A DNA stretch of 63,994 nucleotides, filler included, from Dirinaria sp. TL-2023a (taxonomy: Eukaryota), in assembly GCA_051941275.1 (NCBI GenBank). It is 4 parts of 4 records of this genome, joined end to end, with 100 filler letters (N's around TTAATTAATTAA, not from the genome) between each part and the next. Parts side by side here need not be neighbours in the genome. Positions count along the whole stretch, not along the records: positions 32,323 to 48,365 come from JAVEBF010000512.1; 3 more parts are not named here. One strand, given 5' to 3'. The notes beneath the pieces are model-generated. The model made no database searches and was not told the origin of the DNA. It saw only the letters and a program-made list of their open reading frames with translations. The position numbers and the translations under genes were made by a program. Below, in pieces: positions 29,210 through 37,800 of the stretch (positions within the stretch are counted from its first letter, which is position 1; each line of letters starts with the position of its first letter).

Positions 29210-31164
29210 TTACTGCACTTTTTTTTCTGGCTTCATCCCGCTACCACCACCTAACACCTTTTCCCGCAGCAGCATCGCTCTTCTCCTAATTCTAGCCTTG
29301 AGCACCGCGATATCATACCCCTGGACCTCGTCCGCGCCCACGAACCGGCGGACCAGCATCGTAAAGACACTGCCGAACGCGAGCGCCATGACGGTGCTCG
29401 TTAATATGATCACGTTATACGGCATCGAGAAATCGGGCGTCGGTAGGGGGAGCAAAAGGCTCGTGGTCCTGAGGAAGATCGGTTCTTGGTCTTGTTGTTC
29501 TGCTTCTTCTTTTTCTCGGTCACCATCGTGGAAGGGGGGGGAATTGTTGGTGGAAAGTCTAGGAGGCGGAAGGATGCGGATGACGGCGGGAGCGACGTCG
29601 AACCCGCGGTTCGCGTCAGGCGGGTACTCCGTGTAGCGCAGGATGGCTTTGTCGAAGTCGTAGCTCAGCACGACGGTTGCTGCTGGCGGGACGGTGAGGA
29701 GGCATTCGAGCTGCGTGCCGCGCCGGCGGTCGAGCGCCGGGCGGTAGTACATTGATTGGATGATTTCGGGGTCCGGGTGAGAGCTGGTCGAGATACGAGC
29801 TGTGAGGGTGTGCAGGTAGGGTTTCATGAACCAGGGCAGGGATTCGAAGTAGATGAACGAGATTGGAGTGCTTGGGGACGGGTTTGTGAGGAGGGTCTGG
29901 ACACCGCCTCGTTCTTGACCGTGGCCGGTGATGGAGCGGGAGGCGTAGAGAAGCGGTTCTGGGCGGGCAGGCGTTTCGAGTATTTGTTGTGGGAGAGTTA
30001 GCTCGAAGGCTTCGGATTCGTGAAGTGTGAAACAGCGGGTGGTGCCTGATGGTTTCTTGCTTTCGATAGCGCTACCGGAAACCAAGACTTCGCGCTCAGG
30101 TGGCATATTCAGGCAGACGGACTCTGAAGGGTTGCCTGCCGCGTCTGTAGCTAGGCACGACCCTACGATAGGGCGACCAAAAACTTCGCTGAGGCTCCAC
30201 GACGGGCTGGATAACACGTCGAGTGGATAGCATGCATTAGGATCGTCATAAGCCTTGGATCTGTCGCAGACGAGATTTTCTTCTGGGATGGGTCGTGGGA
30301 TTGGGTTATCTAGCAACATTAGTAAGACTATGGTTCAACGAGGAGCATACAGCCCACCTCGAGGCCTTTTGGATCTTTCGATATCAAGCACCATATCTAC
30401 TGTCTGCTCCATCTCGATATAGCATTCATGACGACCAATGGCACACACAGGCCTGATGTCAATACTCATAGTCTGCCATGACGCGTCGAAGAGTTTGTGG
30501 CCATCCAAGAGTGTCGATATCCCTGCTTTACCCTTGCAAGGGAGCAACTTCAGAAATGGTGTCAAATTCTCGGTGCATACCACTTCCCGAGGGAGTGTCC
30601 CATGCAGTAAGTGAAGCTTTGACATCGCAGATTCAGAATGATGGCCGGCCGGCTCGAAGGTCTTCACAGGTCTCGTGGTCCGTGTCGAGTCAATGAAATT
30701 GAGCGAGGCGCAGAATAGGCCCGACAGAGCATGGTTGAGAGTGATCCATCGAGCAAAAGCCCTGTAGCGGTGTCAATATGCTGCAAAAGATTCCTCAGAT
30801 CGCACACGTACTCTTCTTCTGTGTCCGCCTCGGCCCATGCCCAAAGTTCCACTCCTGTTCCTCCTTCCTTCTGCCCTCTCCATGGTCTAGCGCCCCAGCT
30901 TTCCGCGTCCCACCTACCAGTACTGAATCTTAGATGGAGTTCTCTCGTTTTTGCATGCTGTAGAATTTGGCCAAGCGAACGCGGTATGAACCTGAAATGT
31001 TGCTGTTCGAATGACTGCAGTGAAGCATTGGCCCTGAAGTTGAAGGATGCGAGCAGTAACTCTGGGGTTAACGGTTCAAGGACGAGACGCTCATTATAAT
31101 CCGGGTCTGCGACGACGAGGCAAACAACGAGTAGAGACCAAAGGAAGAGTGAAAAAAGTCTCAT
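29210..31164 (-). CDS. GPI16: GPI transamidase component Gpi16/PIG-T; 3 exons
   Basis: Signal peptide; ELHLRFSTGRW; GTGVELWAW; LPREVVCTENLTPFLKLLPCKGKAGI; LRYTEYPPDANRGFDV; LPTPDFSMPYNVII. Confidence 0.96.
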
Positions 31165-31377
31165 ATCGTTACCTCATGCTTTCCCCGGGTGTCCAAGATC
31201 GAGGAGCATGAATCTGAAGCCAACAATTGCGGGCGTTAGCGCGCAGAATGGAGGCTCTGCGGGCCGCTTTTAGGGCCCAGAAACAAACTTCTTCAGGCTT
31301 TCTGATAATATTATGGAAAGCCTAGACTGTGGGACTCTTTTCCAATACTTAAAAAAATATATCTAAGACTGTTCGTC

Positions 31378-32222
31378 ATGGCAGCAGAACAAAGAAAGCT
31401 GCTAGAGCAGCTGATGGGCGCTGGCACTTCAGCAAAACATGCCCAGCTATCCCTGACTGATCCCAAAGTCTGCCGTTCATTCCTCGCCGGTACCTGTCCG
31501 CACGACCTCTTCACCAACACCAAGCAAGACCTTGGCCCCTGTCCTAAAGTCCATAGTGAACCCTTGAAAGCCGAGTACGAGAGTGCTACAGACAAGAGCA
31601 AATACGGCTTCGAATATGATTACATGCGAGACATGCAGAAGTATATCGATGAGTGTAACCGGAGGATCGACGCGGCGCAGAGAAGGCTGGAGAAGACGCC
31701 GGATGAAATCAGACAGACAAATGACCTGGTAAGTTCCACGATGGCTAACATAAAAGGCCTGGGCATATATACTAATTGCCCATTTCACTGTAGCTCAAGC
31801 AAATATCCGACTTCTCCCGGTCCGTGAACACGGGCCTTCTCGAGGTCTCTGTTCTTGGAGAGTCTGGTGCCGTAAACACGGCGGTCTTGGAGTTCCAGAA
31901 GATCCGCCAAGCCAAAGCCGCCAAAGAAGAAAAGGAGCGCGAGCTGAAATCGCTTTCTGACACCTCAGGTCCCTCGGGACACCAGAAGCTCCAGGTCTGC
32001 GATGTCTGCGGCGCGTATCTGAGCAGGTTGGACAATGACAGGAGGTTAGCGGATCATTTTTACGGGAAGATGCATTTGGGATACGCGCAGATGAGGAAGA
32101 CGTACGAGGGTTTGCAGAAGGAGATGAAGGGGAGACCACCGCCGTCTAGAGCTCCGGAGGAGGAGAGACGAGACGATGCGGATGGAGGAGGTTGGGGAGG
32201 AGGTAGAGGAGGGTATGGTGGT
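31378..32222 (+). CDS. LUC7: U1 snRNP subunit Luc7; 3' end truncated at contig end; intron about 31729-31792
   Basis: MAAEQRKLLEQLMG...VCRSFLAGTCPHDLFTNTKQDLGPCPKVH; QKLQVCDVCGAYLSRLDNDRRLADHFYGKMHLGY. Confidence 0.96.
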
Positions 32223-32322
32223 NNNNNNNNNNNNNNNNNNNNNNNNNNNNNNNNNNNNNNNNNNNNTTAATTAATTAANNNNNNNNNNNNNNNNNNNNNN
32301 NNNNNNNNNNNNNNNNNNNNNN
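32223..32322. other. Artificial contig linker
   Basis: N-TTAATTAATTAA-N. Confidence 0.97.
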
Positions 32323-32534
32323 CCCTAAGTCTAAAGATTTAATCTGATATCTACTATTTGGGGTTTGGAAAAAAGAAACTGCCCGAATCTCTTTTTTCAT
32401 CAACTCGTGATGCTGATGTCTTCATAACAAGATGTGGGAGAGAGAGTGTGTGAGAGAGAGAGCTGGCTGAAGGAACCGAAAAAGGTGAGGGAACAGGCCT
32501 GCACAAGCTCTCTCCTCGAAATTTGACCCCGTGG

Positions 32535-34151
32535 TCAAAACCCCGCCTCGCCCAACCGTGGAGCTCCGCCTTCCCAGTCCAACCGCTCGTAGTACTTGAA
32601 CACCAACTCATACCCCTCGAGATCGTGCACGATGCGATCGATCCTCCTATAGCCCCGGACGCACTCGAGCCTCGCGGAGCGGCGTTTCGCTTGCTTCTGC
32701 TCGGCCAACAGGGCCGCTTCATTGTCCGCGCCGGCGCCGTCGTCGCCATCGTCCATCAGGAGCGGGGCTTTAGCCTCAAAGAGAGTGACCGAGAAGCGAC
32801 CCGGTTTGAAGATGCTGACGACCTGCTCGATAACGCTGGCGGTTTCGCGCCCGGTTTGCTGGCTGGGGACGTTGGTCTCGAAACTGGCGTAGCTACAGTG
32901 CGGCTCGGGCGTCACGTGCACGGTGAAGTAGTGCGTGGTGCCGCTCTGGGCGGGGATGACTCCATTGGCGGAGAAGCCGCAGGGCGTGAACAGGTAGGCG
33001 TCGATCCTCGCGTCCGGGTACTTGGTGGCGGGATAGACGTCTGCCAGGCCGCAGGTTTTGGAGACGACGGTGCCGAGCGCGTGGCCTTCGGTGGAAAGCT
33101 CGTCAGGAACGGTGAGCCTCTCGGCGGAGCCTGAGGCGGGCAGATCGGGCGGCGTCGACAGGGCTGAGGTGTTGCTGAAGATGTCGAGCGTATCGCCATA
33201 GTCAAAGGAATGTATGCCTTGAAAGCCGGATGGGCATGTGCTGCCAAAATTACTGAGATGCTCCTGTGCGTCCATGCGAGCCTTGTGGGCCTCCTCCCAA
33301 TACTGACCTTCCGCGACCGCACTCGCGTGGTCGAGGTAGAATTGCTTGGCATTCTCAGGCTCCAAGTCGGTCATTAGCACTTCCAGCGTCTCATCCTGCT
33401 CGTCTTCGTCCAGCCCGGGACAATTAGTGATCGTAGCCCTCGAAGCTGGCAGATCAAGGAGCTTTGTCTCAGTCTCGAGTCTCTCGGGTGTCGCTGGAGG
33501 CGTCAAGATCGTGTTGGGCTCGGTGAGATACAGGTACCAGTGTTCGCCGTTCATTTTGCCGATCATGTAGGCGCTGCCGCCAAGAAAGAGACGATCGAGT
33601 GACTTGACCTCGTCTCTCCAACTACGGTGAGGTCCTCGCTGTCTGTCCGGGAACTGGAAGTTCTTTCGGCTATAGAAGACGCGATATGGCACAGCAGCCG
33701 TGGCGGTTCCCAAGAAAGTGTTGCCGATAGTATGCGGGAACCCCGCGGTCAGCGCTGCAATCTCCAGGATTTTGGGCAGCCCGCTTAGTAGCGTGGTGGT
33801 ACCGCAGGTTTTCAATATAAGCTTATGTGGAAACACGAACATGCTCGACTCAGAAAGCAGGTACGCATCGACAGCGTCAGACTCGACGGTAGACAATACC
33901 TTACAATTCACAAGTTGAAGCATCTCTTTCCAAGTGTCCGAGCCCACTATCTTGAGACCGGCGGGCGCAGTGGCCGCGGGCAGCGACGCCGGAGACGCAC
34001 TGAACCATACTTCTAAGAGCTTTTCAGGTCCTTCGAAGGCATTCGTAACATCCAGGTCGATGGTAACATCGTGATTGATAGTCAGATGTGGCGTCCCACT
34101 GAATGAGGACGGCGATGCTGTGTAATGCTTCGGGATTTCAGTATTGACCAT
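32535..34151 (-). CDS. SPE2: S-adenosylmethionine decarboxylase proenzyme (intronless)
   Basis: AFEGPEKLLEVWF; autocleavage motif YLLSESSMFV; LKTCGTT; FTPCGFSANG; YFTVHVTPEPHCSYASFETN; first ATG at 34151. Confidence 0.97.
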   Translation of the reverse strand: MVNTEIPKHYTASPSSFSGTPHLTINHDVTIDLDVTNAFEGPEKLLEVWFSASPASLPAATAPAGLKIVGSDTWKEMLQLVNCKVLSTVESDAVDAYLLSESSMFVFPHKLILKTCGTTTLLSGLPKILEIAALTAGFPHTIGNTFLGTATAAVPYRVFYSRKNFQFPDRQRGPHRSWRDEVKSLDRLFLGGSAYMIGKMNGEHWYLYLTEPNTILTPPATPERLETETKLLDLPASRATITNCPGLDEDEQDETLEVLMTDLEPENAKQFYLDHASAVAEGQYWEEAHKARMDAQEHLSNFGSTCPSGFQGIHSFDYGDTLDIFSNTSALSTPPDLPASGSAERLTVPDELSTEGHALGTVVSKTCGLADVYPATKYPDARIDAYLFTPCGFSANGVIPAQSGTTHYFTVHVTPEPHCSYASFETNVPSQQTGRETASVIEQVVSIFKPGRFSVTLFEAKAPLLMDDGDDGAGADNEAALLAEQKQAKRRSARLECVRGYRRIDRIVHDLEGYELVFKYYERLDWEGGAPRLGEAGF

Positions 34152-34314
34152 CTCCGTGCTAACGGTCAGGTGTGACAACCCTTATTTGCTGGACCTGGTG
34201 TGCTTGGCAGGTTGATGTGCTTTTCGACGTCTGTGTAGTTCAGGGTCTTAGTACTCCTCTTCTTAACTAGCTTCAAGGATGCTCGACCTTTCTTGTCCTT
34301 CGGCCACACGTGTG

Positions 34315-34470
34315 CTAAGGAGGCAATTCTCCTCTGACTGATAGCGTTGTGAAGCGCAATCTACCACCCAGACGAACAGGTGCGGTGTCCGCCTGAGAAG
34401 AGAAGGCCCACGCTGGGCTGGGAGGGTGTAGAGGCTGGCTTTTGCCAGCAGCAATAGGAGTTGTGTTGAT
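34315..34470 (-). promoter_or_regulatory. Putative non-AUG upstream ORF in the SPE2 leader ending Pro-Pro-stop
   Basis: Frame open 34488-34315 with no ATG; near-cognate ATC (34470, A at -3) and ATT (34455); ends GGRLRFTTLSVRGELPP*. Confidence 0.55.
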
Positions 34471-34672
34471 CTTGGACCGTGGGGTCTGTTAGGGAGGTCG
34501 GGCAGAGAGGGGAAGGAAGAAGTCCTTGAAGTAAGGAATTTTGACTGTTCTCTGTGTCCTCACTCTGAAGAGTTCGATACTTGTTTCAAGTATCGAATCC
34601 AGCAGACGAGGATGATCTGCTTGCTTTAGATGGTGGTGCTGGGCAGATGGATCCCGGGGGAGTTGATGAACG

Positions 34673-34836
34673 TTATCTGGGTCTAGTGGGGTAGAGTATC
34701 AGCTCGTTTCGGTGATGTAGAATATCAGCTTCTTTCAGTGATGTAGAGTGAATCTTGATGAATTGACAAAAATTCGGCGGGGCAAGGCTCACTTCTTTGG
34801 TTTTGAGAGGAAACGCAGCAAATCTTTGTTGCTCAT
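34673..34836 (-). promoter_or_regulatory. Intron-split AUG uORF MSNKDLLRFLSKPKKPR* in the SPE2 leader (intron 34683-34792)
   Basis: ATG at 34836; GTGAGC donor, GCTGAT branch, TAG acceptor; nearest ATG upstream of the main start, about 685 nt away. Confidence 0.6.
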
Positions 34837-37800
34837 GGAGGAACCGTCAGTGGCGAAGAATGGGTCTAGCAGTCTGATGTACTCTTGTGTTGAGTCATAT
34901 GGTGCTGCACGCTCCGTTCTTAATATATCGTATCCAAGGTCAAGCAATTATGAGGAGCAGAAACAGGGAATGAAAAATGTGAATTTGTGTGTGTGTGATT
35001 GTGTGACCGGCGGGCTGAGACGATCTAGAAACGACCTGGAACTCGCGCATCATTCGGGTTGACCTTAATGCGCTTGTGGCAATTCTTACCTCAGCCTAGT
35101 GAGCCGATTAAGCCTAAAGGACCTCCCTCTACCTTACCTTACCTTATCCTCTCTGAGGCAATGTGCTTTAGTCATTCCCGTCATTCACTGCCAAGCTTCT
35201 ATGCCCACAGCAAAGTTGGGTTTTATCTAGTAACATATTTTGTTGATCTCGGAGAGCTTACTATAATGCAGTAATTGACATCTGCTGGAGGTTTGAATGG
35301 CCCCGTGCTTCTCATCTGCTTTTCCTTAACACGCGGTAACCTTGACATTGTGGTCTACTCTATCTCAGAGACTTGAAGCGAAACAACCAAATATCTCAAG
35401 TTCTTTCGTCAGATGATTCTGCTAGCAAGAGATTCCTATCCGGTTGTTGCTCGAATGCTTTTCCTGCGGACACTACTTGATTATGAAATTGGATATGTGA
35501 CCTGACGACCTGATGGCCTGATGACTTGTTGTGGTCGAATCGCCATCCTGGAGACGCTACTTGATCGAAAAATTTGGGTATGTGACAAGACGACCTGTAG
35601 GCCTTTGCATAGATCGGTAGGATCCCATCCGTGCGACGTTTTGTCTCAATTCAAAAATCAGGAGTAGCATGCTCCATGTGGAAATTGAAAAATAGAAATT
35701 GAGCTGACATAGACATCAAGACACAGAGTGTGGGATTTCAGGAACACGAGAACCGTATTGCGGAAAATCGTCGTGCCGTCATTTCGTGTCTGACTCGGAG
35801 ATAGAGCGATAGAGATCAGGGCAGGTCCAATTGCTGCAGAAGTAGAAGGCCATGGAGATGTAGCCGAATCAGCGTCAGCTGCTTGGAGCATGGGAAATCA
35901 AAATGCATCTGAGGAACGAAAGCAAGCATCGATGCAACCCGAAAAGTTTGTTTGGTCTTGTATGAAAATGTATGCAGAAGGCTACATTCTCGACATTGAG
36001 CAGCACTTATGTTGGAATTTACTTGGGCTGTGATTCAGAGGACGTGATCGGGACACCTTGTAAGAAATTTTCGTACAGGCAGAACTGATAATTATTGTCC
36101 AAGTATCAATCAATTAACGAGAACTAGCCTTACCAAAGTCTGCAAAACTTTTCTTCAGATGAGATGTGTGACAAACTAATCAGGTCAAGGGTACACGCAA
36201 ACACTGTTACACAGGGCAAATTCAGACACAGCTTGCTTCATTTCTTTCATGGGACTTTGGTAGAGTTTGTACATGTGGCAGGTCGTCTAAGGTAAGGAAG
36301 ATTTTCGAAGCCAGCTCATAATGACTGCACGAAGCAAGATGTACTTGACGGCATATGGAGCAACAACACAATGAGAGACCAGGGAGGAATGCGCCAAACA
36401 AATCACAATCGAACAAGCATTTGAGGGCGCACAAACGGCGTGGCCGATTATGTGGACGGCAAGAGCCTACCTCCAGCCGCCTCCAGCCTGCATGATAATT
36501 CGGTCACGGGACCAGGGCTGCCACGTCCTATTGGCTGCCACACAGAAGACGCTCGTATACAAGCATTTCCGGGGAAATGGCTGCGAGCCACAACCATCGA
36601 TACCCAAATGGTGATAACTGTTGGCCAACACTCTCGATCCTCGGTCCAATCAGTCGGTGGCAGCATCATCGCTCAGCAGCTAAGTGGTCAGGAGGATGAT
36701 TTGTGCAGCAGCAAAAGTCAGACTGACGCTGCAACAGACCGCAGCCATCACGGCTTGATGACCTGTCAAGCTGCAGTGCGGTTTGCAGTGGGTGTGGTGG
36801 CGACCAAATAATCCATGCAGCGATGAAATTGTCCGCCGAGTCTGATTTGCTGACGCGTGCCTTTCCGAATAGGTCGATAGATCCTGCGAGCAGGGCCATG
36901 CAGCTAGCTCTTTCGGGCCCTCTCAATGGGGCACAGGGTTAGCGAGGGCAATATTCGACCTCGAGATCGCAGAATTTCTTGGAACAACCTCCCGCTACCT
37001 ACGTGCCGTGATTCGTATCTTCGAGAGAGAGAGAGAAGCTTAAATCAATCGGTATGCAGCATCGACCGGGACACTGCATGCAAGAGCTGATCGAAAACTG
37101 GGAGCGGTGTAGCACTGCATTATTTTGCAGCACTTGACTTTCTGCCAAGCGCACACAGATTTTTGGCTTTTGATGTGTTTGACATTGGATCAGGTCGATG
37201 GCCGGCGATGGATGGGGTGTCAGCATGTGCTCGCGATGGTAAAATGAGGTACCGCCTGTACTTTCCGCAGTGATCTCTGCGCTGTAGAACCTTAGTAAAA
37301 TTATTACTACTCTGGCAGGAATAATTGAGGATTATTGGGTGGAGGGGTGGAGGAACAGGAGCGGGAGACTCGGTATGCAGCCGAGTGCCAAGCGAATCCT
37401 TCGGCAATCTAGTGTAGTGGTTCTGACTTGTGTAGGGGAAGTTCGGTAAAGTGGTGGTGGCAGTAATAAGGTAGCGAGGGTAGTTCTTCGGTTCGTCCCA
37501 GTATCAACTCGTCCTCCGCCTAAGAAAAAGCTTAAAGCATTGACCAAATGAGGGGACGGCAATGGCAGCCATGGCTGGACGCAAGCCCGAATGCACGACC
37601 ACCGCACCACATGAACCCCTTTCCGCTAAAATCCTCGCCCTCGTCGATGATTTGAATTAGGAAATCCAGCGATGTAGGAGAAATCGTCGCTCGATACGCG
37701 ATTCCAACGTCCCTAGTCTGACTCCACCGAGTCTTACAGTGCAAGATTATCCAGCAGCTGTATCGGATGCGCGATGCGCTTAATCGCAGAAACAGATCAC

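Follow-up and report, generated by a model that had tools for sequence, protein, structure and literature searches.

SAM decarboxylase (SAMDC, SPE2) commits SAM to spermidine synthesis, and its gene in Dirinaria sp. TL-2023a (assembly GCA_051941275.1) raises the question of whether a peptide read from the leader of the mRNA could restrain the enzyme when polyamines are plentiful and, if so, where in the leader that peptide lies. A sequence-only reading of the window (the whole stretch of DNA analysed, 63,994 nucleotides with filler included) had placed it in an AUG-less upstream frame of 57 codons ending in Pro-Pro-stop and had proposed that ribosomes stall there at high polyamine. The class of mechanism and the leader named in that proposal are both retained here, while the segment is replaced by one that ends at 34489: a conserved 16-codon AUU...Arg-Pro-Pro-stop frame, present across many filamentous fungi, is probably the translational brake on polyamine synthesis, judging from its pattern of conservation. 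In the parts of two earlier studies covered here, the account of filamentous-fungal SAMDC leaders extends to one AUG upstream open reading frame (uORF) and one hairpin whose mechanism was left open (PMC2811004, PMC5640933).

The main ORF of 538 aa (32535..34151, minus strand) matches PF01536 with an E value of 2e-115, in agreement with the earlier identification of the downstream gene, and has 1 match in its own genome. Its AUG stands in a good context, with G at -3 and at +4 in 54 and 52, respectively, of the 55 distinct leaders compared. The structure of the transcript was read from RNA contigs of a lichen metatranscriptome of a close relative (four runs of a single sample, with pieces 90-99% alike), which extend from about 34993 into the coding sequence and lack two GT-AG introns on the minus strand, intron 1 of 110 nt (34683..34792; contigs X1-X3) and intron 2 of 57 nt (34231..34287; contigs X1-X4), while 34682-34288 is retained as exon. 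Because the contigs lack these two introns, the segment 34488-34315 is exonic leader in this one sample, as the earlier proposal requires. The contigs stop at 34993-35006, which would put the 5' end close to 35000 and make the mature leader roughly 680 nt long, although contigs of this kind cannot fix a start. Separate RNA contigs cover 35275-35400, further upstream, and pass into unlike sequence below 35275. Just 3' of the SAMDC gene, 32222-32342 consists of N runs and a short TTAA-repeat linker; the window joins separate contigs there, so that adjacency in the genome is not established for the genes on the far side. ORFs at 29210-31827 have, by eye, a resemblance to a GPI transamidase subunit (minus) and a LUC7-like splicing factor (plus).

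Judged from its sequence, the mature leader carries, in order, a poor-context AUG uORF, hairpin 1, a good-context AUU uORF, two further hairpins and the strong main AUG. An extra upstream AUG opens a frame of 10 codons with C at -3 (34898-34866, minus) within the transcribed leader, in a stretch poorly conserved in the alignment. A Lys-rich 64-codon frame (34360-34166) was discarded as a candidate; it is cut by intron 2 and the leader part there is not conserved.

The leaders for comparison came from metagenome contigs: the best 80 of 183 relatives were taken, L039, L043 and L064 were left out since their match starts inside the gene, and the window was added, giving 78 leaders. A frame ending in [RLW]PP-stop occurs at this place in 72 of the 78; four others are too short (L007, L023, L063 and L068) and two lack it (L059 and L076), so that, with PP-stop itself part of the search pattern, 2 of the 74 long-enough leaders are without it. 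Setting aside the truncated L050 and L057 and duplicates left 55 distinct copies, whose SAMDC proteins are from 61% identical (median 69%) and form 38 clusters at 90%, on a tree of length 9.7. Six of 10 proteins looked up cluster with named fungi (Aureobasidium, Penicillium, Elaphomyces, Cladosporium, Alternaria and Sphaerulina), and no Sordariomycete was identified among these 10.

In the window, this frame is the 16-codon AUU uORF IPYFKDFFLPLSARPP-TAA (34489..34539, minus), contained within the spliced mRNA according to the relative's RNA contigs, and its peptide has a hydrophobic core followed by Arg-Pro-Pro-stop. An ATT lies 15, 16 or 17 codons before the PP-stop in 6, 45 and 4 of the 55 leaders, respectively, always as ATT and never as ATC or ATA, in the context GTCAAA-ATT (34537..34545), where C at -4 and A at -3 are each found in 55/55. 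Downstream, +4 is C in 40 leaders and T in 15, and +5 is C in 54/55. The ATT, -3 and -4 underwent 0 changes on the tree, compared with 10 synonymous changes at an Ile inside the peptide (ATC 21, ATT 18, ATA 2; 41 sequences, same tree). The two prolines before the stop accumulated 23 synonymous codon changes and 0 amino-acid changes among the 55 copies, and the last 10 codons as a whole 161 changes at the codon level and 43 at the amino-acid level. Over these 10 codons pN/pS was 0.28 in frame versus 1.40 and 3.18 when the frame was shifted, values that, like the others reported here, are pairwise, non-independent and drawn from a pS near saturation, and diversity at the three codon positions was 0.20, 0.14 and 0.53. 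For the 30 nt ahead of the AUU context pN/pS was 0.96, so the coding signature ends at the ATT, and in L035 an in-frame stop lies 3 codons upstream of it. An invariant ATT with fixed upstream bases, situated where the coding signal begins, points to a non-AUG start, unlike a plain Ile codon. Even a divergent group (L017, L038 and L054) with a TAG stop and a different peptide keeps the ATT, its context and the PP-stop.

Substitutions of this kind indicate that the AUU uORF peptide is under purifying selection, and we consider it very likely that the uORF is translated at all. A stable hairpin at AUU+10..+54 that might enhance the start was absent, with only 1/55 leaders reaching z < -1.5. Neither of the two small frames had a match in Pfam. 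Among the two leaders that lack the frame, L076 has an unrelated leader, and L059 represents a natural loss, in which the AUG uORF, the core of hairpin 1 and hairpin 2 are kept and the PP-uORF has lost both its AUU and its stop (stretch L059:1-558).

The AUG uORF is spliced across intron 1, exon 1 (34793..34836, minus) being joined to exon 2 (34673..34682, minus; a conserved block with the last codons Pro-Arg and TAA) at the RNA joint 34793/34682, to give 17 codons ending in Pro-Arg-stop. Its start context is poor, with T at -3 in 42/42 leaders; the uORF was found in 44 of the 53 leaders long enough to hold it, with a pN/pS of 0.33, and we conclude from the substitution patterns that both the AUG and the AUU uORF are under peptide-level selection. 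The contexts of all three starts, the main AUG included, likewise bear the mark of selection. Fifteen of the 17 residues match the consensus MSPKDLLRFLSKPAKPR of the Pezizomycotina AdoMetDC AUG uORF (PMC2811004 Suppl. Fig. 1A), of which the spliced frame is thus a member as far as that figure represents the family. The portion of the study covered here gives a single Pezizomycotina uORF with 405-441 nt of leader behind it and shows no second uORF (PMC2811004); the AUU uORF falls within that gap. In L021, L042 and L072, the AUG uORF is continuous without intron 1, reflecting either spliced transcripts or intron loss.

The leader also contains conserved RNA structure. Hairpin 1 (34557..34612, minus; 11-bp core 34597-34573; -27.9 kcal/mol, z -5.0) ends about 35 nt before the AUU, at a spacing of 34-38 nt in 31 of the 37 leaders with a match, and an 8-pair consensus stem could be placed on 36 of 46 stretches, with small covariation. 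Its frame relative to the ATT varies (10/23/9), and the idea that a longer uORF begins at a CTG in hairpin 1 was rejected because the hairpin does not stay in a constant frame with the PP-stop. Hairpin 2 (GCUGGC-AAAA-GCCAGC; 34434..34449, minus) and stem-loop 3 (34349..34411, minus; 12-bp core 34397-34367 plus outer helices) both lie inside the 57-codon frame. The hairpin 2 motif is present in 54/55 leaders with 98% of cells paired, yet 3 of its 6 pairs are invariant, and the frame in which it lies with respect to the uORF stop also varies (16/21/13). For hairpins 2 and 3 together, placed on 42 of 51 distinct stretches, 92.9% of cells were paired against 34-47% in slid controls, a comparison biased towards the structure, since this was drawn by hand from the window fold and the consensus; 20 cells had changed on both sides, compared with 7.4 in shuffles (0/500). 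RNAalifold alone recovered 9 pairs, namely those of hairpin 2 plus 4 from stem-loop 3, and the outer helices of the hand-drawn structure are therefore less certain. In L015 (which clusters with Aureobasidium), L035 and L037, only 69-70 nt separate the AUU-uORF stop from the main AUG (162 in L016), hairpin 2 being kept and stem-loop 3 missing, which makes the AUU uORF independent of stem-loop 3.

A search of Rfam gave no match. The SDC RNA motif has been described as a repressive 11-bp hairpin in the SAMDC 5' UTR (Li and Breaker, 2017, PMC5640933), and the leader in the window resembles the portion of that account covered here in having a candidate SAMDC 5' UTR hairpin of about 11 bp and leader splicing that runs through a uORF. 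Either hairpin 1 or stem-loop 3 is a candidate for the SDC motif, and the primer table of that study, taken by itself, gave no location that would choose between these two stems. The same portion reports two uORFs near splice sites, contains no mention of a non-AUG or PP-stop frame, and names uORF control and the mechanism of the hairpin as open questions (PMC5640933).

The closest known system is the AZIN1/ODC uCC, in which a conserved AUU, a C-terminal PP and spermidine-enhanced repression have been reported in the sections covered here (PMC2811004, PMC11550727). The AUU uORF corresponds to it in its invariant AUU, which is preceded by A at -3, in a pair of neighbouring prolines at the C-terminus, purifying selection on the peptide, the presence of accompanying conventional uORFs and a location in a polyamine-pathway gene. 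The uORF differs in its length of 15-17 codons as against the 22-100 given for uCCs in those sections, in a pyrimidine rather than G at +4, in ending RPP-stop instead of PPW or PS-stop, and in being flanked by conserved hairpins. Moreover, uCCs lie in leaders of ODC homologs, and since the gene downstream here is SAMDC (PF01536), the AUU uORF is not a member of that family. A nematode AdoMetDC uORF of 17 codons, shown in PMC2811004 Suppl. Fig. 1B to end ILVLYRRPP-stop, belongs to the same gene and has the same hydrophobic stretch before RPP-stop, although it is AUG-initiated in that figure, and the likeness is probably convergent. The yeast HOL1 MLLLPS-stop and mammalian AMD1 MAGDIS uORFs, which according to the parts covered of PMC10855120 and PMC2811004 are short and repress through slow termination at high polyamine, differ from the AUU uORF in being AUG-initiated, six codons long and equipped with another stall motif.

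By analogy with these systems, we find it rather likely that the AUU uORF is a stall-and-queue repressor of the AZIN1/ODC-uCC type, that is, a polyamine-responsive translational feedback device in the SAMDC leader. At low polyamine, most scanning subunits would pass both weak starts and SAMDC would be made, on the model of AZIN1 and HOL1. At high polyamine, inhibition of eIF5A would slow Pro-Pro synthesis or termination, leaving a ribosome paused at RPP-stop; subunits behind it would then form a queue reaching the AUU, which lies 48 nt before the stop, so that initiation at the AUU would rise and SAMDC synthesis would drop. Counting against this reading are the lack of G at +4 and of a start-enhancing hairpin behind the AUU, a motif (RPP-stop) other than the tested PPW or PS-stop, the loss of the AUU uORF in L059 while the AUG uORF was kept, and the unrelated leader of L076. 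A more ambitious version, which we put forward tentatively and regard as doubtful in its full extent, is that filamentous-fungal SAMDC leaders form an undescribed two-stage polyamine sensor, in which the fixed poor-context AUG uORF and the fixed good-context AUU uORF would both be switched on by queuing and the hairpins, including the SDC motif, would be repressive through slower scanning, with subunits backing up onto the AUU as a result. A non-AUG uCC would then have arisen independently in a second enzyme family, and RPP-stop would be an eIF5A-sensitive termination motif reached convergently with nematodes.

The same conservation can be accommodated by a uORF that is translated and inhibitory and does not sense polyamine, acting as a constitutive damper or responding to start-codon stringency (eIF1/eIF5) or to another metabolite, with any polyamine sensing left to the AUG uORF. 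Two weak starts, one an AUG with T at -3 in every leader scored and the other an AUU, would also read initiation stringency, the ligand is not readable from sequence, and L059 retains the AUG uORF only; the PP-stop is invariant (55/55) in a gene of the polyamine pathway, however, and motifs of this type are known polyamine- or eIF5A-sensitive sites, so we hold this alternative to be unlikely, if still to be reckoned with. Far less probable, in our judgement, is that the block 34539-34489 owes its conservation to an RNA or protein-binding element, or to its belonging to a longer or differently spliced frame. Conserved RNA elements abound in the leader, and in most leaders the frame stays open for 13-56 codons upstream of the ATT, which would suit such an origin, but diversity concentrated at third positions and length changes in whole codons (15, 16 or 17) are those of a coding frame. 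An extension upstream is opposed by the frame shifts that hairpin 1 shows relative to the ATT, by the finding of no AG acceptor before the ATT and by the fact that no other near-cognate codon is conserved upstream (at most 8/55 at any offset).

The remaining alternative is the one from which this study started, namely that the 57-codon frame (34315..34488, minus) is itself a stall uORF, perhaps a lineage-specific one, beginning at ATC 34470, at ATT 34455 or by read-through of TAA 34489. Much of what had been read from the sequence held: translation gives 57 open codons ending ELPP-TAG, the leader is ATG-free from the ATG at 34836-34834 to the main start at 34151, ATT 34455 does share the frame, and a hairpin does lie downstream of the ATC, starting at 34449. 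The residues given as AFSLQ are AFSSQ, and the ATC has the A at -3 ascribed to it and is not conserved, lacking a consensus in the leader alignment. The frame is exonic, its last Pro is kept through a synonymous change in the close RNA relative, and it begins directly after the AUU uORF stop (TAA, 34491-34489), which precedes C in 52/55 leaders, in the same frame.

As a peptide, however, it is not conserved, nor are its frame and stop position. The equivalent frame in the 55 distinct leaders has 2-79 codons and ends in PP- or PS-stop in 2/55 (the window and, at a different position, L080), and in L001 and L002, its closest homologs at the genomic level (80% protein identity), there are 39 codons and another end. 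The conserved RLRF...LPP-stop end predicted for the last 20 codons was recovered by none among the tBLASTn matches listed, the pieces AAGKSQP, WAFSSQADTA and VRLGGR fall in different frames within one homolog, and the C-terminal region TTLSVRGELPP is without consensus in the leader alignment. In the close RNA relative, 4 of the 7 substitutions listed are non-synonymous, with 13 further sites besides, and pN/pS in this phase over five blocks was 0.82, 0.93, 1.17, 0.71 and 0.91, with no third-position excess or triplet pattern. Since 12 of the 643 stop-to-stop frames with at least 50 codons in the window terminate in PP/PS-stop, and 6 of the 286 stops in the corresponding part of the homologous leaders come directly after PP, the PP-stop of this frame is not beyond chance. 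We accordingly give this alternative the slightest chance of all; on the sequence evidence the segment is a chance-open, hairpin-bearing spacer behind the AUU uORF, and the conservation found there is that of its RNA hairpins.

In the literature searched (titles and abstract starts), no description of an AUU/PP-stop uORF in fungal SAMDC was found, and the covered parts of PMC5487733, PMC3982577, PMC7394265, PMC10855120 and PMC11550727 do not describe the element, which may already be in print. An AUU start escapes ATG-based annotation. If the preferred reading of the AUU uORF as a polyamine-responsive repressor is true, the AZIN1-type non-AUG queuing switch would reach beyond ODC homologs to SAMDC, and eIF5A-dependent termination at PP-stop would gain a very short model; the invariant AUU start and RPP-stop, confined to 16 codons, make exact mutations testable. 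A small variable hairpin (34487-34476, minus) begins directly after the TAA of the AUU uORF; it was rejected as an element in its own right, being weak (17/55 with z < -1.5) and outside the RNAalifold consensus. Together with the C after the stop, it could bear on termination or read-through.
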